A stretch of 9,170 bases of DNA from a virus (Duplodnaviria; Heunggongvirae; Uroviricota; Caudoviricetes): the IMG/VR virus record IMGVR_UViG_2554235184_000006. One strand, given 5' to 3'. Positions 1-9,052 of this stretch are shown here, one piece after another. The notes beneath the pieces were generated by a model. It saw only the letters and a program-made list of their open reading frames with translations, made no database searches and was not told the origin of the DNA. Within the stretch, counting starts at the first letter, position 1, and every line of letters begins with the position of its first letter. Position numbers and translations under genes: made by a program.

Positions 1-21
1 CCGTGCCACCGGAGAAAACCG

Positions 22-300
22 ATGGCACGCAACGCAAAATATTACAATCATGATAATTCGACCGTTCTTGCCCACACGCACGAGCGGTATTCTCATGCAT
101 TTAAGTCAGACTGGTACCAGCATCCCCCATGCACTGAAGAACAGGCCGAGTGGCTAATTCAGTGCTACCGCAGACACGGATACGAGATTAAGAAAGCCCT
201 CAGCCTCGATTATCGTCACTGGATAATCTCCGTCAGGCTCCCTTACTCCGAACGGCCACCGCGTCCGTCCCGCACATTCCAGCAACGCATCTGGAGGTAA
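22..300 (+). CDS. Hypothetical nin-region protein, 92 aa
   Basis: ATG at 22 preceded by GGAGA (9-13); stop TAA 298-300 sits 1 nt before the next gene start. Lies upstream of the DUF968/rusA/Q cluster, as nin-region genes do. No family recognised from the translation. Confidence 0.5.
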   Translation: MARNAKYYNHDNSTVLAHTHERYSHAFKSDWYQHPPCTEEQAEWLIQCYRRHGYEIKKALSLDYRHWIISVRLPYSERPPRPSRTFQQRIWR

Positions 301-301
301 C

Positions 302-1360
302 GTGCGGGTATTACTTCGACCTGTTCTGGTACCGGAACTTGGGCTGGTGGTGCTAAAACCGGGCCGTGAATCCATGCCGGTATTCCACAATACCCGGGTA
401 CTGGTGGAGCCGGAACCGAAAAGCATGCGTAATCTGTCGTCCGGGGTCGTTCCTGCCGTTCGCCAGCCGCTGGCGGAGGATAAATCATTACTGCCATTTT
501 TCAGCGACGAACGAGTGATTCGTGCTGCTGGTGGCGCTGGCGCATTGTCTGACTGGTTACTGCGCCATGTTAAATCCTGCCAGTGGCCACACGGCGATTA
601 TCACCACAGTGAAACCGTCATTCACCGTTATGGTACCGGCGCAATGGTGTTGTGCTGGCACTGCGACAACCAGCTGCGCGACCAGACCTCCGAATCACTC
701 GGGCAACTTGCTCACCAAAACCTGTCTGCATGGATGATTGACGTCATACGCCATGCAATGAATGGCTCGCAGGAACGGGAATTATCGCTGGCTGAATTAT
801 CCTGGTGGGCGGTCCGCAATCAGGTGGCGGACGCGCTACCGGAAGCGGTATTACGTCGTTCGCTGGGGTTGCGTGCGGAAAAAATCCGCTCAATGTACCG
901 TGAAAGCGACATCGTACCGGGAGAGCAGACCGCCACCAGCATACTGAAACAGCGCACAAAAAATCTTGCGCCGCTGCCTCACGCCCACCAGCAACAGAAC
1001 CCACCACAGGAAAAGACGGTGGTCAGCATTGCCGTTGATCCGGAATCTCCGGCTCAGTATCTCCAGCGCCAGAAACCACAACGGGAAGAGATGCCTGTAT
1101 ACACGCGCTGGGTAAAAACGCAGAAATGCATGACGTGTGGCAATCAGGCAGATGATCCGCATCACATCATTGGTCATGGACTGGGAGGGATGGGAACAAA
1201 GGCTGACGATTTGTTTGTTATTCCGCTGTGTCGTAAATGCCATAACGAACTACACGCCGGGGTAAAAGATTTTGAAGAAAAACACGGTAGTCAGTTGTTG
1301 TTGCTGATTCGTTTTTTAATGCACGCGAGAAATTCGGGTGTTCTGAAGTGGAAAGCATAA
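302..1360 (+). CDS. DUF968 (YdfU-like) prophage protein with C-terminal HNH-like Cys/His motif, 352 aa
   Basis: GTG start at 302 with GGAGG at 293-297; stop TAA 1358-1360 abuts the rusA ATG at 1361. C-terminal motif CMTCGNQADDPHHIIGHG...LCRKCHNELH looks like an HNH/zinc-finger nuclease fold. From memory this resembles YdfU-type proteins found next to Q genes in E. coli prophages. Start codon is uncertain (alternative ATG at 374). Confidence 0.65.
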   Translation: MRVLLRPVLVPELGLVVLKPGRESMPVFHNTRVLVEPEPKSMRNLSSGVVPAVRQPLAEDKSLLPFFSDERVIRAAGGAGALSDWLLRHVKSCQWPHGDYHHSETVIHRYGTGAMVLCWHCDNQLRDQTSESLGQLAHQNLSAWMIDVIRHAMNGSQERELSLAELSWWAVRNQVADALPEAVLRRSLGLRAEKIRSMYRESDIVPGEQTATSILKQRTKNLAPLPHAHQQQNPPQEKTVVSIAVDPESPAQYLQRQKPQREEMPVYTRWVKTQKCMTCGNQADDPHHIIGHGLGGMGTKADDLFVIPLCRKCHNELHAGVKDFEEKHGSQLLLLIRFLMHARNSGVLKWKA

Positions 1361-1729
1361 ATGACCGAACGCATAGAATTTGTTTTGCCTTACTCGCCGA
1401 CGGTGAACACTTACTGGCGACGCCGTGGCAGCACATATTTTGTATCAAAAGCCGGGGAGCGTTATCGCCGGGCAGTGGCGCTTATTGTTCGCCAGCAGCG
1501 ACTGAAATTAAGCCTGTCCGGACGGCTGGCAATAAAAATTATTGCAGAGCCACCGGATAAGCGTCGTCGTGACCTGGACAATATTCTGAAAGCACCACTG
1601 GATGCGCTGACGCACGCGGGGTTGTTAATGGACGATGAGCAGTTTGATGAAATCAATATTGTACGTGGCCAGCCAGTATCTGGTGGACGGCTGGAGATAA
1701 GAATTACAGAGGTGGGTGTGCATGAATAA
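1361..1729 (+). CDS. rusA: RusA-family Holliday junction resolvase, 122 aa
   Basis: Translation contains the conserved RusA acidic motif PDKRRRDLDN and ends GGRLEIRITE, closely matching E. coli RusA as I remember it (PDRRRRDLDN...GGRLELTITE). Size and position just upstream of Q are typical. Confidence 0.9.
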   Translation: MTERIEFVLPYSPTVNTYWRRRGSTYFVSKAGERYRRAVALIVRQQRLKLSLSGRLAIKIIAEPPDKRRRDLDNILKAPLDALTHAGLLMDDEQFDEINIVRGQPVSGGRLEIRITEVGVHE

Positions 1730-2411
1730 CCAGTATTTACAGTTTGTTCGTGAGCAACTCATGATTGCCACTGCAGATCTCAGTGGGTCGACAAAATGCC
1801 AGCTGGAAGCCTGGCAGGAAAATGCCCTGTTCGATACAGGGCGTTACAGACGCAAAAAAATTCGTTACCGCGATGAGGTAACCGGAAAAATGATCACGCG
1901 GGATAATCCCCCGATCCAGGGTAAACAATCACTGGCGAAAGGCTCATCAATTGCGCTGGTCAGTCCTGTTGAGTTTGCAACATCATCGTGGCGGCGTGCT
2001 GTTCTGGAACTGGAAGAACATCAGAAGGCGTGGTTGTTGTGGTGTTATGGCGGAAACATTTGCTGGGAGCATCAGATCGCGATAACGCAGTGGGGGTGGA
2101 GTGAATTTAAAACTCAGTCCGGCTCCAGAAAAATTGCAGTGAAAACGCTGGAGCGTGTGAAGAAGTTGATCTGGCTGGCGGCACAGGATGTCAGAGGATG
2201 GGTTACCGGGTGTGAGGTCTACCAGAGACAGGAGCTTGCCAGACTGTGTGGAGTTAAGCCTGATAACTGGAGCCATAATTATGCGAACTACTGGCGTGAG
2301 ATGTGCGATATTTTTAAGCGCCTCGATAGAGAATCCTTGATTTGCTCCGTGAAAATAAGAGCGCAACAAAAAGCGACCTTTTCACGACGAGATATTGCAA
2401 AAGTCAATTAA
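1722..2411 (+). CDS. Q: Late-gene antitermination protein Q (phage 21/82-type), about 229 aa
   Basis: ATG at 1722 overlaps the rusA stop (TAA 1727-1729), indicating translational coupling; the ORF track's GTG at 1716 is a less likely start. Sits directly upstream of a promoter-like region, intrinsic terminators and the lysis cassette. N-terminus MNNQYLQFVREQL matches my recollection of QuuQ-type Q proteins. Family assignment not verified. Confidence 0.7.
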   Translation: MNNQYLQFVREQLMIATADLSGSTKCQLEAWQENALFDTGRYRRKKIRYRDEVTGKMITRDNPPIQGKQSLAKGSSIALVSPVEFATSSWRRAVLELEEHQKAWLLWCYGGNICWEHQIAITQWGWSEFKTQSGSRKIAVKTLERVKKLIWLAAQDVRGWVTGCEVYQRQELARLCGVKPDNWSHNYANYWREMCDIFKRLDRESLICSVKIRAQQKATFSRRDIAKVN

Positions 2412-2435
2412 ATCGCGTATGTTTCGTATAAATCT
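2395..2435 (+). promoter_or_regulatory. Candidate late promoter (PR'-like) with possible Q-utilisation region
   Basis: TTGCAA (2395-2400), 17-bp spacer, TATGTT (2418-2423); a second -10-like TATAAAT at 2427-2433 could act as a sigma70 pause element as in lambda PR'. Sequence-only prediction. Confidence 0.25.
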
Positions 2436-2472
2436 GATATTTTGCCGATTTTGTACGTGATGGCAAAGTAAG

Positions 2473-2500
2473 AAAAAACCACCGCCAGGTGGTTTTTTTT
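2473..2500 (+). terminator. Rho-independent terminator (candidate tR')
   Basis: AAAAAACCACC (2473-2483), loop GCCA, GGTGGTTTTTT then 8 T in total (2493-2500). A-tract/T-tract symmetry suggests it could work in both directions. About 62 nt after the Q stop. Confidence 0.6.
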
Positions 2501-2623
2501 ATGTCCGAAAATCGCGTCAGTACAGTAAACGCGCTGGTGGTTGCGAATACGGGTCTTTCAGCTTGCCGGCTTTTTCGACAAGAGTTATTGGTATGTCACG
2601 TTAACCGGAAAAGGGAAAAAGAC

Positions 2624-2821
2624 ATGCTAAAACAGCAGGATATGACAGAAGCCGCCAGAGTGGTGTTTAATGAATTAAGCGTTACCGACCCGGCGACAGT
2701 CAGGGAGATTGCACAGAATACTTACCTTTCACGCGAACGCTGCCAGTTAATACTGACCCAGCTTGTTATGGCGGGTCTGGCAGACTATCAGTTTGGTTGT
2801 TACAGACACCTTCAGTCCTGA
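2624..2821 (+). CDS. Small winged-helix protein (PapI/FaeA-like), 65 aa
   Basis: ATG 2624 with AAGGGA RBS (2611-2616). Segment TVREIAQNTYLSRERCQLILTQLVMAGLA resembles the recognition-helix region of PapI/FaeA-type regulators. The track ORF 2489..2821 starts with GTG inside the terminator T-tract and has no RBS, so the shorter form is preferred. Confidence 0.45.
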   Translation: MLKQQDMTEAARVVFNELSVTDPATVREIAQNTYLSRERCQLILTQLVMAGLADYQFGCYRHLQS

Positions 2822-2835
2822 AGGCTTTTTTATTT
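2809..2835 (+). terminator. Rho-independent terminator overlapping the stop codon of the small wHTH gene
   Basis: CCTTC (2809-2813) pairs with GAAGG (2820-2824), followed by TTTTTTATTT (2826-2835). Short stem, so moderate confidence. Confidence 0.45.
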
Positions 2836-3134
2836 GTGGTAAATGGGCGGCTGGTGGGTGTGGTGGTTGTTGCTTTCCCGTTGCTGAAAAAGAAAACGCC
2901 AGACTGTTAGCCGGGTATCAGTTAGCGGGAGAAATTTTTAAATACTTCACAATTCAGGCGGTTGACTGTTGTCTGGTTTGCGGGGAGTTTGTTAAAAGAA
3001 ACTGGCATGGTGAATCCCCCTGTGCGGAGGGGCAATCAGCGAGTAGGTATATGGGATAATCGCGGATTCAGGTGCTGGTACTGAATTCACCGGGAGGCAC
3101 CCGGCACCATGCAATGGCACATAGCGCCACTCTC

Positions 3135-3170
3135 CAGCCCCTCTCCGGAGGGGCTGTTTATATTGATTTT
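3135..3170 (+). terminator. Rho-independent terminator at the edge of the AT-rich island
   Basis: Perfect 9-bp stem CAGCCCCTC (3135-3143), loop TCCG, GAGGGGCTG (3148-3156), followed by TTTATATTGATTTT. Sits between upstream + strand transcription and the 3' end of the minus-strand gene 3191..3526. Confidence 0.6.
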
Positions 3171-3190
3171 GTCAGATGTGAGTAAACTCC

Positions 3191-3526
3191 TTATGGACTT
3201 TGTTGTTTTAGCCCATAAGGACATATTTGCAGAGTGCAACGGTTATTAAAGCATTCATTCAATACGTTATCTGTATTTGTAGGGCATTCCTGGCTGTTTT
3301 TGATTAAATTCCAGAATGTTTTATTGAATGGTACTACGTTGTAAATGGTTACAGGTAGCACTTTGTTATTGAGCATGATACCTGTGTGAGTCAGTGTAAA
3401 TATACTTTCAGGAGGTAAGAAAGCATCCGATTGATACCAGATTATTAATTTTATTTTACTCCATATGACTGAAAAAGATATTCCGCATGATGGCTGGATA
3501 ACTGTATCAATCACAATCCACTTCAT
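3191..3526 (-). CDS. Hypothetical Cys-containing protein in an AT-rich island, 111 aa
   Basis: Minus-strand ATG (3524-3526) with AAGGAA RBS 5-6 nt upstream. Composition is strongly AT-rich compared with flanking phage genes. Opposite orientation to the late operon. Six Cys, four of them in the C-terminal [26 protein letters not shown]. No family recognised. Confidence 0.55.
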
Positions 3527-3786
3527 TTAGTTTCCTTGTTTATGCCTTGCTGGTGATGTTCTGAAAAGTATAAATGATATTTTTGATTGTAAACCATAGA
3601 GCAGAATTATTTTTCTGATGTTGTTTATTGTTTATTTAAATGCAGGGTGGTTTATATCTCGTCTTGTAGTTTATCCATGCATATCTGCTTGATGATGAGG
3701 TTTTTATTTAAGGTATGGTTTTGTGTTTTTTCTGTATTACATGTCAGGTATTTTAAAGAATCATTTTTCAGATGGTGGAAAGAACC

Positions 3787-3975
3787 ATGGCATTTAAACA
3801 CTATGATGTTGTCAGGGCGGCGTCGCCGTCAGATCTTGCGGAAAAGCTGACACATAAACTGAAAGAGGGCTGGCAGCCGTTTGGTAGTCCGGTGGCCATA
3901 ACCCCTTATACCCTGATGCAGGCGATTGCAGCAGAAGGTGATGTGGTGGTCAGTGGTGCAACTGAGCCGGAGTGA
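3787..3975 (+). CDS. Small conserved phage protein (possibly the DUF1737-type protein found upstream of holins), 62 aa
   Basis: ATG 3787 with GGTGGAAAG upstream; the in-frame ATG at 3772 has no RBS. Translation MAFKHYDVVRAASPSDLAEKLTHKLKEGWQPFGSPVAITPYTLMQAIAAEGDVV looks, from memory, like the small protein commonly annotated just upstream of S in Stx-type lambdoid prophages. The family name is unverified. Confidence 0.55.
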   Translation: MAFKHYDVVRAASPSDLAEKLTHKLKEGWQPFGSPVAITPYTLMQAIAAEGDVVVSGATEPE

Positions 3976-4217
3976 TACTACGTCATCGTACTGGCCCGGC
4001 ATTCCAGGCCATAAAAGACGGTCTGGCAGTGGGACTAAATGCACTGACGCTGACGGATATTACCAAAAATGCAACGTATGGCGTTGAGATAGAAAGTCTG
4101 GTGCTGGAGATAAATGCACCGGCATCATCATAAAAAGTGAGCCAGTCAAATGGAAGGTATCGTTAAACTCACCGGTAGTGTCAGTGGGTCGTCTGAGACG
4201 CCTGCATGAGTTATCAG

Positions 4218-4250
4218 AGCCATCAGTACTTAACTGGTGGCTTTTTTATT
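4218..4250 (+). terminator. Rho-independent terminator immediately upstream of the holin gene
   Basis: AGCCATCAG (4218-4226), loop TACTTAA, CTGGTGGCT (4234-4242; 9 bp with one G-U pair), then TTTTTTATTGTTG (4243 onward). Confidence 0.65.
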
Positions 4251-4282
4251 GTTGTCAGCTTCCGGATAACGGGAGACGGGGT

Positions 4283-4498
4283 ATGTACCAGATGGAAAAA
4301 ATCACAACAGGTGTGTCATACACCACGTCAGCGGTGGGAACGGGCTACTGGTTCCTGCAGTTGCTGGACAGGGTTTCCCCGTCTCAGTGGGCGGCAATAG
4401 GCGTGCTGGGGAGTCTGCTGTTTGGGCTGCTGACATATCTGACTAACCTGTATTTCAAAATCAAAGAGGACCGGCGTAAGGCGGCGCGGGGAGAGTAA
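4283..4498 (+). CDS. S: Class II pinholin (phage 21 S21-like) with dual-start motif, 71 aa
   Basis: ATG 4283 and ATG 4292 (M-Y-Q-M) with GGGAGA RBS (4271-4276). Translation ...[66 protein letters not shown] closely matches the S21 pinholin as I remember it, with two TMDs and a charged C-terminus. The track ORF 4178..4498 is an upstream in-frame extension that spans the terminator. Confidence 0.85.
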
Positions 4499-4502
4499 AG
4501 TG

Positions 4503-5393
4503 ATGAATAAAAAATATGAACTGGTTGTTAAGGGGATAAATAATTACGGGGATAAGGTTACTGTTACTGTGAAGTCGGAAGGTGACGGGCAAGCGTCGCT
4601 GTTGTTGCCAGATGTGGCGATTAGTCTTGACCGTACTGAAGGTGCCACGCTGGAGTTTTACGAAGCTGAGGCGAAAAAGCAGGCGAAGCAGTTTTTCATG
4701 GATGTTGCTGCCGGGTTATGTGAATGGAACGAACCGTTGCCGGAAAAGCGCCCCGTAATTTTAGAGGCGCAGGATGTGTTGATAACCTACAAAGGAAAGC
4801 TACCGGGAAGAATTACTTGTTCTCTGAAGATGCCGCCGTCAACACTGCGGTCAGAAAAAGATGATGTTGAATCACGTATTGAAAAACTGGAGAGCTACGT
4901 CGTTGAGCTGAATAAGAAATGGTCGATATTGGTGCCTTCTGGCGATGAAAAGCAGTTTGCTGCGTTTGACGATTATTGTCGGAAAGTGATGAGCAGAAAT
5001 CTCGCAGAGTGTTTCAGTATTCATAATGATAATTTCAGTGACCCGGAATGGGAGTGTAACCGGCCATCCTTTGTTGTATCCGGTGATGCTGGGAAAATAA
5101 CCATCTCAGAAAATGGGAAAGTAACACCTCCATCGCACCAGCACAGTGAGGAGCTCATTGAATTTGCCATTGATTACCTGAAGAACAATAAAAAGCAGGG
5201 GCTGATGAAGCGCGTTGGCCGTTGCATGGGATATCTTCAGGTAGCCGCTGAGATTGAAGCGCTGGCCAGTGGTGCTGATAAGGATGCAATTGTGCGGGAG
5301 GCTCTTCTTCGTGATTTTAATACTCCACCCTTTAAAAAAGTGCCGGCTTACTGGCTTCATCCGGGGCTGACTTATCTTAAAGTGCGTATTTAG
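4503..5393 (+). CDS. Hypothetical hydrophilic protein inserted between holin and endolysin, 296 aa
   Basis: ATG 4503, 5 nt after the holin stop (TAA 4496-4498), with GGGGAGAG RBS (4487-4494); stop TAG 5391-5393. Long uninterrupted ORF with no TM segment or signal peptide and a K/E-rich composition. No family recognised. Confidence 0.7.
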   Translation: MNKKYELVVKGINNYGDKVTVTVKSEGDGQASLLLPDVAISLDRTEGATLEFYEAEAKKQAKQFFMDVAAGLCEWNEPLPEKRPVILEAQDVLITYKGKLPGRITCSLKMPPSTLRSEKDDVESRIEKLESYVVELNKKWSILVPSGDEKQFAAFDDYCRKVMSRNLAECFSIHNDNFSDPEWECNRPSFVVSGDAGKITISENGKVTPPSHQHSEELIEFAIDYLKNNKKQGLMKRVGRCMGYLQVAAEIEALASGADKDAIVREALLRDFNTPPFKKVPAYWLHPGLTYLKVRI

Positions 5394-5429
5394 TGGGCCA
5401 GGGACAGCGGCTGAATATTTAATATATCC

Positions 5430-5963
5430 ATGAACACCAAAATCAAATACGGCCTGTCGGCTGCCGTTCTGGCGCTGATTGCCGCTGGTGCGCCTGCGCC
5501 TGACATTCTCGACCAGTTTCTGGATGAAAAGGAAGGCAACCACACCACGGCATACCGTGATGGTGCAGGTATCTGGACCATCTGCCGTGGTGCCATCATG
5601 GTGGATGGCAAACCTGTCGTTCCGGGCATGAAGTTGTCGAAGGAAAAATGCGACCAGGTTAACGCCATTGAGCGTGATAAAGCGCTGGCGTGGGTGGAGA
5701 AAAACATCAGAGTGCCGCTGACCGAACCCCAGAAAGCGGGGATCGCGTCATTCTGTCCGTACAACATTGGTCCCGGTAAGTGTTTCCCGTCGACGTTTTA
5801 CAGACGAATTAATGCTGGTGATCGAAAAGGTGCCTGCGAAGCGATTCGCTGGTGGATTAAGGACGGTGGCAGAGACTGCCGTATTCGTTCAAACAACTGT
5901 TACGGTCAGGTATCCCGTCGTGACCAGGAGAGCGCGCTGGCGTGCTGGGGTATCGACAGATAA
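5430..5963 (+). CDS. R: SAR endolysin (phage 21 R-type true lysozyme, GH24), 177 aa
   Basis: N-terminal Gly/Ala-rich weakly hydrophobic segment GLSAAVLALIAAGAPAP typical of a signal-arrest-release domain. Catalytic E-8aa-D-5aa-T spacing is present in EGNHTTAYRDGAGIWT. Overall similarity to P21 R and DLP12 RrrD-type lysozymes, from memory. Confidence 0.9.
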   Translation: MNTKIKYGLSAAVLALIAAGAPAPDILDQFLDEKEGNHTTAYRDGAGIWTICRGAIMVDGKPVVPGMKLSKEKCDQVNAIERDKALAWVEKNIRVPLTEPQKAGIASFCPYNIGPGKCFPSTFYRRINAGDRKGACEAIRWWIKDGGRDCRIRSNNCYGQVSRRDQESALACWGIDR

Positions 5964-6119
5964 GCAGAATATTTTGCTGAAAAATGAGGAATGGCCACGC
6001 GGGCGGATAACACGAAATCCTGCGAACTGGCGAAACGTAAGTGAATAAAAGTAAAAACCCCGTTTGTTGGCACCAAGCGAGGTTTTGTGTTTCTGACCTT
6101 GAGTAAGGCAAGGGAGAAC

Positions 6120-6302
6120 ATGGCGAAGTGTAAACGAATTCTGTTGAGGTTGACTATGAAAAATGGCCTTGAACTGAAAGCGCCTGTAACTGATGACATC
6201 AGCAGAGCACTGGCTTTTGCCATTAAGTGGGTGGCGGTCGGTGTTGCTGTGTCCCCGATGCTGTATGGGCTGGCAAAACTGGTCATTGCGTTGAAATCGT
6301 GA
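6120..6302 (+). CDS. Small protein with C-terminal hydrophobic segment, 60 aa (alternative start 6156)
   Basis: ATG 6120 with AGGGAGA 2-3 nt upstream (short spacing); an alternative ATG at 6156 has GAGG at 6146-6149. C-terminal [27 protein letters not shown] is TM-like. Stop TGA 6300-6302 overlaps the strong RBS of the next ORF. Family unknown. Confidence 0.4.
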
Positions 6303-6316
6303 AGGGAGGATTAAGC

Positions 6317-6448
6317 ATGTCAGACAAACTCATAACGCTGGCGAAGATCCTCTGTGTAATTGTCGGCATTTCATTTTCACTAATGCTGGTTGCTCTTTTT
6401 CTTTCCATGGCCTGGATGATGTTGTCTTCGTCGGGGTTGCTGGGGTGA
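6317..6448 (+). CDS. Small hydrophobic membrane peptide, 43 aa
   Basis: ATG 6317 with strong RBS GGGAGGA (6304-6310). Translation [43 protein letters not shown] is almost entirely one long hydrophobic stretch. Stop TGA 6446-6448 overlaps the alternative Rz GTG start. Confidence 0.5.
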
Positions 6449-6456
6449 ACATAAAC

Positions 6457-6918
6457 CGAATGCTTTCCGCGTTTATCGTTATTCTGCTGGTGGCCTGTGG
6501 TGCGCTGTGGATGGCAACAGACCATTACCGTGATAACGCGATTACCTACAAAGCGCAGCGCGATAACAAAGCCAGTGAACTGAAGCTGGCGAACGCAACC
6601 ATTACTGATATGCAGGTGCGCCAGCGCGATGTTGCTGCGCTCGATGCAAAATACTCGAGGGAATTAGCCGATGCGAGAGCTGAAAATGAAACTCTTCGCG
6701 CTGACGTTGCCGCTGGTCGTAAGCGCCTGCGGATCAACGCCACCTGTCCAGGCTCCGTGCGTGAAGCCCCCACCACCTCCGGCGTGGATAATGCAACCGG
6801 CCCCCAACTGGCAGACACCGTTACACGGGATTATTTCACCCTCAGAGAGCGGCTGATGACGATGCACAAGCAACTGGAAGGGGCACAGGACTATATCCGC
6901 ACTCAGTGCCTGAAATAA
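6457..6918 (+). CDS. Rz: Rz i-spanin (inner-membrane spanin subunit), 153 aa
   Basis: Translation ...[71 protein letters not shown]...[19 protein letters not shown] is nearly collinear with lambda Rz as I remember it. N-terminal TMD present. Start is ATG 6457 or in-frame GTG 6445. Confidence 0.85.
6671..6856 (+). CDS. Rz1: Rz1 o-spanin (outer-membrane lipoprotein), embedded in Rz in the +1 frame, 61 aa
   Basis: ATG 6671 with GAGGGA RBS (6657-6662). Lipobox-like VVSAC followed by the proline-rich [14 protein letters not shown], matching lambda Rz1. Fully nested inside Rz, the classic spanin arrangement. Confidence 0.85.
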
Positions 6919-7228
6919 GTTTTGTTGATGCGCCGTATCGTCGCTATATTCCCTCATTAACAGAGACCGCAGCCCGACAGGGAGACTCCTCTGCGCGAGT
7001 GTGCGGGGATAATTAAAAACGATGCACACCGGGTTTTTACCGCGTTAATGATTCGCGGGTTTATCCCGGTGCGATGGTGGAAGAAACAGGAAGCTGTATT
7101 ACAGAAAGTGCTACTACTGTATCCCGATGCGATGTATGTAATGTGAGTCAGATAATGGCACAGGATGTGGTGATGTGGCAGTCTGGAACACAGGATATAT
7201 TGTCAGAATAAGACCCGTAGGAATAAAA

Positions 7229-7555
7229 ATGAAAAGACGCCTTTTACTACTTTTTCTGTTATCTGTCCTGGCAGTGGGATGCTCGCAGCAAAAAGCTGAT
7301 GAGCCCCGGCAATTAGTGACGGTGTATCCACGATATCCGGAATATGCTGCAGCAAATTATATCAAGGGGCTGGTTGAGGTTAAGTTCGATATTGGTGCTG
7401 ATGGGACTGTGACACGGATCGTTTTTCTCCGCTCAGAGCCTCATAATTTGTTTCGTGATGAAGTGGTGAAGGCCATGGCGAAATGGCGATTTGAAAAGAA
7501 TCGCCCCTGTCAGGGAGTGAAGAGACAATTTATCTTTACGCCGTCACGTCCTTGA
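7229..7555 (+). CDS. Lipoprotein with TonB C-terminal-like domain, 108 aa
   Basis: ATG 7229 with AGGAA RBS (7219-7223). Signal peptide MKRRLLLLFLLSVLAVGC with a relaxed lipobox. The mature part YPRYPEYAAANYIKGLVEVKFDIGADGTVTRIVFLRSEPHNLFRDEVVKAMAKWRFEK fits the TonB_C pattern (compare E. coli TonB GQVKVKFDVTPDGRV...FEREVKNAMRRWRYEP). The track ORF 7175..7555 is an N-terminal extension without RBS. Confidence 0.7.
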   Translation: MKRRLLLLFLLSVLAVGCSQQKADEPRQLVTVYPRYPEYAAANYIKGLVEVKFDIGADGTVTRIVFLRSEPHNLFRDEVVKAMAKWRFEKNRPCQGVKRQFIFTPSRP

Positions 7556-7647
7556 TGCTTCCAGGTAGAGAGGGGCTGGACGCAGGAGAAAAATGAAAGA
7601 GCCAGCGGTTATATTTTTGTCATGGCTGACGAGGAATGATGGAAGAA

Positions 7648-7670
7648 GGCGTTGTATGCCACACAACGCC
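7648..7670. terminator. Hairpin between convergent genes (candidate bidirectional terminator)
   Basis: GGCGTTGT (7648-7655), loop ATGCCAC, ACAACGCC (7663-7670), followed on the + strand by a T-rich run. Lies between the 3' ends of the + lipoprotein gene and the - ORF. Confidence 0.4.
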
Positions 7671-7677
7671 TCACTGT

Positions 7678-7857
7678 TCATTTCTTCTTTTTCTCTGGTG
7701 GAACCCGATGAATAAGAGTTGCACTGGTTTCCGATGAGATGGCGATATACTCGGGCAAAGTATGCTGGCAGTTTTCCAACTGGTCAAAAATACCTGCTCT
7801 CGTCTGTTGCAATGCCTGCAGCATGCGGCGGCAATGCGCCTTGCTTTTACTAACCAT
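7678..7857 (-). CDS. Small hypothetical protein, 59 aa
   Basis: Minus-strand ATG (7855-7857) with strong RBS GAGGAAGGAAAG immediately upstream. The longer track ORF 7678..8031 has no RBS at its start and overlaps the upstream gene. C-terminal KKKK tail. Family unknown. Confidence 0.4.
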   Translation of the reverse strand: MVSKSKAHCRRMLQALQQTRAGIFDQLENCQHTLPEYIAISSETSATLIHRVPPEKKKK

Positions 7858-7918
7858 CTTTCCTTCCTCTATCAGTCGCTGCGTGAACTCATCATGTAAT
7901 ACCAGGTAAATGCGGATG

Positions 7919-8170
7919 TTATCGGTTTTGGCTACGCAGCATAGTACAAAACGGACAGGTGCATCCCGGGACGGGGGAGGCGTCACATGTCCCTGTGATG
8001 GTTGTTCCGGGTAATGCACTGTGTGGGGCATAAAAATGTCCGATAATTTTACTTTCTACCGCAGTTAGTTGATTCGTTGGTCCTGGTAGCACATTGGGCG
8101 AGGATTTAAATGCCAGGCAACTGAAGGATGATGTTGCAAGGGAGATAGCGAGAATATTTCTGATTTTCAT
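7919..8170 (-). CDS. Small secreted Cys-rich protein, 83 aa precursor
   Basis: Minus-strand ATG (8168-8170) with AGAGG about 9 nt upstream. N-terminus MKIRNILAISLATSSFSCLA looks like a Sec signal peptide. Mature region has a Cys cluster TGTCDASPVPGCTCPFC. The track ORF 7919..8239 extends 23 codons further upstream without RBS. Confidence 0.5.
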   Translation of the reverse strand: MKIRNILAISLATSSFSCLAFKSSPNVLPGPTNQLTAVESKIIGHFYAPHSALPGTTITGTCDASPVPGCTCPFCTMLRSQNR

Positions 8171-8289
8171 TTGATGATGCCTCTGTGTGAAATGACGGTA
8201 AACGACGCACTTGTGCCGGCACATAATAGCAAGCACCATAATAGATCAGATTCGATTCTTGCTGTAAGTGATAATTATTCTCGTTTTCG

Positions 8290-8480
8290 GGTCCTTTCCG
8301 TCGATCCAACAGGTTACGGGGCGGCGACCTCGCGGGTTTTCGCTATTTATGAAAATTTTCCGGGGAAAATCATGTCGGTACTTCTCGAACATAACTATTT
8401 GTTTTTTCTAATATCGAATCCGTAAAAGGTCCGACATGAAAACGCCTAAAAAAGTCATTTTCGGGCACTTTCATGTCGGC
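8290..8480. other. cos site: cosQ-like segment, cosN with 12-nt cohesive end GGGCGGCGACCT at 8319-8330, and cosB-like region
   Basis: 8291-8365 matches the lambda genome junction as I remember it (...CAGGTTACG / GGGCGGCGACCTCGCGGGTTTTCGCTATTTATGAAAATTTTCCGG). Downstream the sequence diverges from lambda cosB and instead carries a TCATGTCGG repeat. Located immediately upstream of Nu1. Confidence 0.85.
8370..8479. repeat. Three copies of TCATGTCGG (direct, inverted, direct): candidate terminase small-subunit R sites of cosB
   Basis: TCATGTCGG at 8370-8378, its reverse complement CCGACATGA at 8431-8439, and TCATGTCGG again at 8471-8479, with an AT-rich possible IHF-bending region between the first two. 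This mirrors the lambda R3 / R2 (inverted) / R1 layout. Confidence 0.5.
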
Positions 8481-8506: not shown

Positions 8507-9052
8507 ATGAAGGTTAATAAAAAGAAACTTGCCGAAATTTTCAACGTGGATCCGCGAACGATTGAACGCTGGCAGTCTCAGGGACTCCCTTGCGTCTCCG
8601 GAGGTGGTAAGGGCGTTGAATCTGTATTTGATACCGCCATGGCAATTCAGTGGTATGCGCAGAGGGAAGCTGATATCGAAAATGAAAAACTCCGTAAAGA
8701 GGTTGAGGATTACAGGGCTGCCAGTGAGGCAGATCTCCAGCCTGGGACTATTGAGTACGAACGCCATCGACTTACGCGTGCGCAGGCCGACGCACAGGAG
8801 CTGAAAAATGCCAGAGACTCCGCTGAAGTGGTGGAAACCGCATTCTGTACTTTCGTGTTGTCACGGATCGCAGGTGAAATTGCCAGTATTCTTGACGGGA
8901 TCCCTCTCTCGGTACAGCGGCGTTTTCCGGAACTGGAAAACCGACATGTTGATTTCCTGAAACGGGATATCATCAAAGCCATGAACAAAGCAGCCGCGCT
9001 GGATGAACTGATACCGGGGTTGCTGAGTGAATATATCGAACAGTCAGATTGA
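8507..9052 (+). CDS. nu1: Terminase small subunit (Nu1-like), 181 aa
   Basis: C-terminal two-thirds ([74 protein letters not shown]...[43 protein letters not shown]) is nearly identical to lambda Nu1 as I remember it. The N-terminal wHTH domain is recognisably related but divergent. Confidence 0.9.

Follow-up and report, generated by a model that had tools for sequence, protein, structure and literature searches.

The window is a stretch of 9,170 nucleotides (IMG/VR virus record IMGVR_UViG_2554235184_000006) that carries the region for late regulation and lysis in a lambdoid E. coli prophage. Our subject is the short interval at positions 2395-2435, where the end of the antiterminator gene Q meets a candidate late promoter. 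An initial annotation of this interval had proposed a Q-dependent promoter in which the sequence TATAAAT acts as a tandem -10-like element and causes a sigma70-dependent pause. We consider it highly probable that the interval carries the late promoter pR′ and the Q-utilisation site (qut) of a phage-82-type prophage, and that the pause is directed by TGaTATTTT, which starts at the last base of the interval (2435) and runs beyond it. The evidence consists of the motifs themselves, the family of the Q protein, colinearity and base identity with pR′ of phage 82, conservation across genera and the fold of the terminator that follows.

Q Family and Choice of Comparator

The Q gene occupies positions 1722-2411 on the + strand, as do all features below unless stated otherwise, and encodes 229 amino acids from the ATG at 1722, the open reading frame (ORF) being open from a GTG at 1716. 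The only Pfam match of the protein is PF06323 (276.4 bits against a cut-off of 25, E=2e-82), and it shares 66% identity with the Q of phage 82 across 229/229 residues, without gaps. In the chromosome of E. coli strain 7/2 (NZ_CP023820), which is 100% identical to the window at positions 1-8364 and ceases to be so at 8364, RefSeq labels the gene as 'bacteriophage antitermination protein Q'. The Q82 family, as PF06323 is called, is separate from the families of lambda (PF03589) and phage 21 (PF06530) (PMC9388147). The lambda-type family PF03589 was not matched by the window Q in the Pfam search. Because Q belongs to PF06323 and is 66% identical to its counterpart in phage 82, the right comparator is pR′ of phage 82 and not PR′ of lambda. 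The resemblance to both promoters that had been noted earlier thus survives in its phage 82 half, where the Q family is shared and the promoter colinear, and is lost for lambda (PF03589); the pause would be expected at +25/+26 and not at +16/+17.

Colinearity with pR′ of Phage 82

The GenBank record of phage 82 (X92588) ends at the Q stop codon and no other phage 82 record was matched. PhiR47_2 encodes a Q with 97% identity to that of phage 82; it was employed as the proxy downstream of Q and was cross-checked against the positions reported in PMC5001585. The 3′ end of X92588 shows the same ...ATATTGCAAAACTGGATTAA as the window, and PhiR47_2 has the layout TTGCAA-AACTGGATTAAAAATCA-TATATT-TTATGT-AAATCTGATATTTTGCCAATGTTGTACG. 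The window aligns without gaps from -35 to +17 with PhiR47_2, and also with the 3′ end of X92588. In this alignment the -35 hexamer TTGCAA (2395-2400) falls on TTGCAA of both the phage 82 record and PhiR47_2, and the -10 hexamer TATGTT (2418-2423) falls on TATATT of the proxy. Direct reading confirmed the coordinates given in the initial annotation for TTGCAA, the 17-bp spacer and TATGTT, with TATAAAT starting 4 nt after the latter and TCG (2424-2426) lying between. The overlap with the end of Q is likewise as described, the -35 hexamer being within the last Q codons (ATT GCA AAA) and the stop codon TAA (2409-2411) within the spacer (2401-2417). By homology, the call of a Q-dependent late promoter and the choice of these two hexamers find support in pR′ of phage 82.

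Landmarks of pR′ have been published for phage 82. The wild-type transcript begins with AAA and carries GCC at +15-17, and the pause element is a -10-like hexamer with an extended -10, located directly upstream of GCC (PMC5001585). The enzyme pauses at +25/+26 with U at +25, and a one-base insertion at +18 brings G to the pause site. The paused RNA has G 11 nt upstream of its end, a base other than G 10 nt upstream and no G after the end, while mutation of GCC at +15-17 lowers the pause half-life ~5-fold (PMC5001585). A single register of the proxy sequence fits all of these landmarks, with +1 at the first A of AAATCTG, and the landmark bases of that register are all identical in the window.

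Transferred to the window, this register places the probable transcription start (+1) at 2430, the first A of AAA, which is the sole register giving both an AAA start and GCC at +15-17. The stretch from +1 to +17 (AAATCTGATATTTTGCC) is identical to the proxy, as are the bases 2435-2446 and 2453-2455, and G24, T25 and A26 are common to the two. Evidently, the extended -10-like element at +6 to +14, GCC at +15 to +17 and a pyrimidine at +25 are all present. The element TGaTATTTT (2435-2443) comprises the TG of an extended -10 at 2435-2436 (+6, +7) and the hexamer TATTTT at 2438-2443 (+9 to +14), and is assigned to sigma70-dependent pausing by homology with phage 82. It is followed by the discriminator-like GCC at 2444-2446, which sets pause strength and position in phage 82. 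The pause itself is predicted at 2454/2455 (+25/+26), T then A, with G at +24 before it, again by homology. A sigma70-dependent pause element is thus very likely present, as had been proposed, and what does not hold is its assignment to TATAAAT, since TGaTATTTT would take that role.

Conservation of the Promoter and the Probable Pause Element

The relatives compared comprise 80 viral-contig loci, in which Q is 66-100% identical, and 34 loci from species-representative genomes, in which Q is 52-71% identical. Beside the latter Q homologues the same layout was found in Citrobacter, Enterobacter, Kluyvera, Atlantibacter, Franconibacter, Phytobacter, Raoultella, Klebsiella, Buttiauxella, Leclercia, Lelliottia, Scandinavium, Siccibacter and Pseudocitrobacter. 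The pattern TTGCAN, 17 bp, NAnnnT, 11 bp, NGATA(T/C) fits 112/118 loci. Over 55 distinct sequences of relatives, drawn from 13 or more enterobacterial genera, the -35 hexamer, TA..TT of the -10 hexamer and the pause element are kept. TTGCAA is present in 50/55 of these distinct sequences and the others have TTGCAN, TTGCA being demanded by the search pattern. Two features that the pattern does not require are T at position 6 of the pause hexamer, found in 55/55, and TG at +6/+7, found in 52/55. The pause hexamer varies at positions 4-5 only, the variants being TATTTT, TATCGT, TATTGT and TATGCT.

Column by column, conservation was measured in a gapless alignment of 42 distinct E. coli-type relatives, to which the figures in this paragraph refer. 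All six columns of the -35 hexamer are invariant, and so are positions 1, 2, 5 and 6 (TA..TT) of the -10 hexamer, with positions 3-4 varying. The lowest mean entropy of the region, 0.099, belongs to TGnTATTTT, to be compared with 0.754 for the third codon positions of Q (14% invariant) and 0.619 for the highly variable bases from -6 to -1. Two synonymous third-codon positions lie within TTGCAA and are unchanged in all 42, which points to a constraint beyond coding. In the spacer, 8/17 columns are invariant, and by eye ~10/17 positions match the phage 82 proxy. The Q-binding element (QBE) of Q-dependent promoters lies between the -35 and -10 hexamers, and that of phage 82 is included in a fragment from -31 to +30, according to the accessible text of PMC4914094; the spacer 2401-2417 is therefore the candidate QBE region of the window. 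The phage 82 QBE sequence is absent from that accessible text, and a literature search with the literal sequence gave no relevant match.

Two loci, from E. coli ECMA0423 (L091) and Shigella flexneri SFBU1023 (L118), have TATATC at the -10 position, with loss of the T at position 6, and TACTTT as the pause hexamer. Their cassettes may be decaying prophage switches.

The motif score by itself is uninformative. The pair TTGCAA/TATGTT matches the consensus at 8/12 positions, under the threshold of 9 of the promoter scan, and was for this reason unlisted; sites scoring 8/12 number 41 in the window against 39.1 +/- 6.4 in dinucleotide shuffles. The promoter was judged real because of its position, its conservation and its colinearity with pR′ of phage 82, and not because of its score. 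The minus strand holds a promoter-like site at 2466-2439 (TTGCCA, 16 bp, CAAAAT, 9/12), directed back into Q. The site is the reverse complement of the conserved leader segment; it probably results from this inverted repeat and is less likely an antisense promoter.

The TATAAAT Heptamer

TATAAAT (2427-2433) would span the start site mapped from phage 82, running from -3 to +4. It occurs in 35/112 loci, in every one of which Q has >=90% identity with that of the window, and these amount to 3/55 distinct sequences. The common form is TGTAAAT (33/55 distinct sequences), which is also that of the phage 82 proxy, and PPompW has TGCAAAT. As TGTAAAT is the common form, TATAAAT appears to arise from one lineage-specific G-to-A change at -2.

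The real -10 hexamer and the real pause hexamer of the Q82-type family have A at position 2 (A2) and T at position 6 (T6) as invariant positions. The heptamer can be read in two registers, of which TATAAA is without T6 and ATAAAT is without A2, and none has both key bases, which makes TATAAAT unlikely as a pause signal. A conserved -10-like hexamer with A2 and T6 at about +1 to +6, the lambda-type arrangement, was not found in TATAAAT. With no suitable register and a presence in 3/55 distinct sequences, the tandem -10-like element of the initial annotation has to be given up, and the heptamer probably resembles a -10 box by happenstance.

Predicted Leader RNA and Terminators

An intrinsic terminator, tR′, is located at 2473-2500 (+44 to +71) and consists of A6, the hairpin CCACC-GCCA-GGTGG (2479-2492) and T8. 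The terminator scan matched it on both strands; it is symmetric and may act on both. The expectation of a terminator about 50-70 nt downstream of the promoter was borne out, the G+C hairpin and T8 lying at 2479-2500 and the whole of 2473-2500 being 44-71 nt past the proposed start. A leader of ~71 nt, counted from that start to the end of tR′, would result. The short terminated leader that had been expected is thus consistent with the homology to phage 82 and with the predicted terminator. The segment 2430-2500 folds with -26.3 kcal/mol, at z = -5.06 against shuffles.

Three further terminator-like hairpins were found by the scan on the + strand before the holin gene, at 2809-2834 (after a 65-aa ORF), 3135-3166 (at the end of a small RNA (sRNA) homologue of STnc100) and 4216-4254 (just upstream of the holin gene). 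Together with tR′, they fit a need for processive antitermination.

In the relatives, other terminator hairpins are found about as far from the promoter. It was observed that the terminator after the promoter-pause block is swapped in a cassette-like manner, with at least five unrelated hairpins among the loci (L002, L003, L034, L048, L062, L090; the window equivalent is 2470-2500). In two sequence types the terminator comes almost directly after about +26, and the leader would be only ~50 nt.

The minimum free energy (MFE) fold of 2430-2500 contains a second hairpin, UAUUUUGCC...GGCAAAGUA, at 2438-2470 (+9 to +41), in which the transcribed pause element and GCC pair with GGCAAAGUA. Most relatives have a predicted hairpin at about +13 to +37, formed by four kinds of stem: TTGCC/GGCAA, TGCCA/TGGCA, GTCG/CGAC and GCTGCC/GGCGGC. 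RNAalifold gave no consensus structure for the leaders of the relatives, the register of the stem shifting among sequence types, and the L048 and L090 types are without the leader hairpin. Sub-threshold Rfam matches of the leader to Phe_leader (28 bits, E=0.2) and, on the minus strand, to STnc370 (36 bits, E=0.044) were set aside as chance or terminator-driven.

Alternative Explanations

Several points weigh against the assignment to pR′ of phage 82. The bare promoter motif is no better than chance. Initiation at 2430, the pause, the binding of Q and antitermination are assigned by homology, as is the dependence on Q. The comparison downstream of Q employs the proxy PhiR47_2 and not authentic phage 82 sequence. 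Since Q and the spacer both diverge from those of phage 82 (66% identity for the protein), the Q-site specificity may differ. The TATAAAT variant could in principle shift the choice of start site or add a weak extra sigma contact.

Two alternatives give TATAAAT a function. As a -10-like repeat that causes the sigma70 pause, in the manner of AACGAT at +1 to +6 of lambda PR′, the heptamer has its presence near the lambda pause-element position relative to the -10 hexamer in its favour, and a pause element so near the start is physically possible, given that the lambda pause is at +16/+17 (PMC5001585). Nevertheless, we regard this as very improbable, because Q is of the phage 82 and not the lambda family, the heptamer straddles the start site expected from phage 82, it offers no register with both A2 and T6, and it is absent from the phage 82 proxy, from PPompW and from every other genus, its 3/55 distinct sequences forming one close lineage. 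Moreover, the conserved TGaTATTTT, characterised in phage 82 and located 2 nt downstream, already explains pausing. The other alternative takes TATAAA(T) as the working -10 element of the window lineage, with a start at about 2439-2441 and TGaTATTTT at the start site. TATAAA does match TATAAT at 5/6 positions against 4/6 for TATGTT, yet a usable -35 element 16-18 bp upstream is lacking, as TCAATT, CAATTA and AATTAA match TTGACA at no more than 2/6 positions; a TG extension is missing, A stands at position 6 instead of T, the element is not conserved, and such a start would break a phage-82-type pause geometry that is otherwise kept base for base. This explanation is hardly credible.

The remaining alternatives concern what the cassette does. 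In addition to the pR′ assignment, the ~71-nt leader or its +9 to +41 hairpin might have a function of its own, for example as a trans-acting sRNA in lysogens, as has been shown for StxS from the PR′ of Shiga-toxin phages. An Hfq-binding sRNA can arise from a PR′ leader, and phage 82 too is reported to produce a short late RNA (PMC7547250); the window leader has two hairpins ending in a U-tract with z = -5.06, and most relatives keep a hairpin at about +13 to +37 despite differing stems. Opposed to this are the lack of a consensus structure by RNAalifold and the shifting stem register, the absence of the hairpin in the L048 and L090 types, and a conservation from +18 to +40 that is no better than that of synonymous sites, so a separate function appears unlikely. 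We give little credence also to the wider suggestion that the recurrent hairpin or the whole leader is a regulatory sRNA or takes part in the action of Q82 and NusA, or that TATAAAT tunes start-site choice or early sigma retention. It might further be supposed that the cassette is a relic in a defective prophage, its promoter, pause and terminator no longer working. In the identical chromosome, RefSeq lists certain late-region genes nearby as partial pseudogenes, and the damaged -10 hexamer and pause hexamer of the Shigella flexneri and E. coli ECMA0423 loci indicate how such decay could look. Nevertheless, no critical base of the window is damaged, as both hexamers have A2 and T6, and TG, GCC and the U at +25 are in place; the Q, holin, lysozyme, Rz and terminase ORFs are all open, and the segment occurs at >=99% identity in 131 complete E. 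coli records; a relic is improbable.

Proposed Mechanism

With the pR′ assignment, the events at the interval can be proposed from what is known for the family. Constitutive activity, with short terminated RNAs as the product, is reported for PR′ promoters, that of phage 82 included (PMC7547250). The sigma70 holoenzyme would start constitutively at 2430 from TTGCAA, the 17-bp spacer and TATGTT. Retained sigma70 region 2 would then rebind the non-template strand at TGaTATTTT, backed by GCC, and the anchored enzyme would scrunch DNA and pause at +25/+26, where GCC and the U at +25 would fix the position. The Q82-family product of the adjacent upstream gene would bind its DNA site in the promoter region and, with NusA, load onto the paused complex and make it terminator-resistant. 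In the absence of Q, transcription would end at tR′ and yield the ~71-nt leader, while with Q the enzyme would read past tR′ and no fewer than three further terminator-like hairpins towards the holin, endolysin, Rz and packaging genes. The steps from initiation to Q loading are taken from the family literature (PMC5001585, PMC4914094, PMC9388147), and the read-through step is based on the terminator predictions.

Gene Order and Prophage Setting

The segment 2300-2600 has matches at >=99% identity in the 131 complete E. coli records mentioned above, and the cassette was matched at some level in 2036/5426 complete E. coli genomes. Upstream of Q lie a gene for a DUF968/HNH protein (302-1360), which corresponds to ydfU, and a RusA gene (1361-1729). 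The hokD-rem-ydfU context upstream of Q in strain 7/2 (L004) resembles that of the Qin prophage of K-12 (L085). The Q of Qin (ydfT) was considered as a source of experimental start-site data and was dropped, as it has no similarity to the window Q. Judged by sequence, Qin has a different antiterminator module in the same gene neighbourhood.

The first ORF after tR′ encodes 65 aa (2624-2821) and is annotated in strain 7/2; the longer ORF that contains it has no Pfam family. The stretch 2475-2895, which holds this ORF, was also found at 89-93% identity in many Stx2-converting phages; their Q genes did not match. The ORF is followed by the STnc100 homologue at 2976-3165, a full-length match to Rfam RF02076 with 132 bits against a gathering score of 47. 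This homologue sits inside the late transcription unit, with tR′ on one side and the holin gene on the other. STnc100 is a known prophage-associated sRNA that was recently tied to PasD sRNAs (bioRxiv 10.64898/2026.05.13.724894). On the minus strand, a 111-aa ORF at 3191-3526 has no Pfam match and is annotated by RefSeq in the identical chromosome as the anti-adaptor protein IraM. The iraM gene looks like a moron-type insertion in the late operon, between Q and the lysis genes and on the opposite strand. No tRNA genes were found in the window; PPompW relatives have three tRNAs after tR′.

The late lysis genes (4283-6918) lie downstream of the promoter on the same strand and encode a P21-type holin, a DUF1327 protein, lysozyme and Rz, identified by Pfam (PF04971, PF07041, PF00959 and PF03245) and RefSeq annotation. 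Among them, the holin gene is at 4283-4498 and the lysozyme gene at 5430-5963. Rz is followed by a gene for a TonB-C protein. Further downstream an ORF at 8507-9052, beyond the identical part ending at 8364, lies at the place where strain 7/2 has its annotated small terminase subunit.

Significance for Annotation

The system is ordinary, being a new and uncharacterised example of the well-known phage 82-type pR′/qut/tR′ cassette, and what is known of Q antitermination is unchanged by it. Its main value is in annotation, as the late promoter, the pause element and the terminator tR′ are hardly ever marked in prophage records. The layout TTGCAN, 17 bp, TAnnTT, 6 bp and +1, followed by TGnTATnnT at +6 to +14 and then GCC or CGC, extends over at least 13 enterobacterial genera and could mark the late transcription start beside any PF06323 Q gene. 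The pause hexamers TATTTT, TATCGT, TATTGT and TATGCT provide natural variation for studies of sigma70-dependent pausing.

Comparison with Known Systems

With pR′ of phage 82 the window shares the PF06323 Q, TTGCAA, the 17-bp spacing, the position of the Q stop codon in the spacer, AAATCTGATATTTTGCC, G24/U25/A26 and a terminator soon after. The two differ in the -10 hexamer (TATATT in the phage 82 proxy against TATGTT in the window), at -2, where the window has A in place of G and thereby acquires TATAAAT, and at +18 and +21. The window terminator is another hairpin and closer, so that the leader would be ~71 nt against ~85-90 nt in the proxy (by eye). Moreover, ~1.8 kb of morons (the small ORF, the STnc100 homologue and iraM) lie in the window between tR′ and the holin gene.

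The likeness to the PR′/qut/6S RNA system of lambda consists in a sigma70 promoter that is constitutive and overlies the end of Q, an early -10-like pause element, the action of Q with NusA and a short leader. The lambda PR′ leader is 194 nt. The lambda Q is of an unrelated family (PF03589), with the pause element at about +1 to +6 and the pause at +16/+17. The assignment of the pause to TATAAAT had taken over this lambda geometry, which does not fit the interval. StxS is similar in that a short RNA is made constitutively from PR′ to tR′ in the lysogen; a likeness in sequence was neither looked for nor noticed. It differs in that the Stx phage leader, 258 nt long, is cut down to 74 nt by RNase E (PMC7547250).

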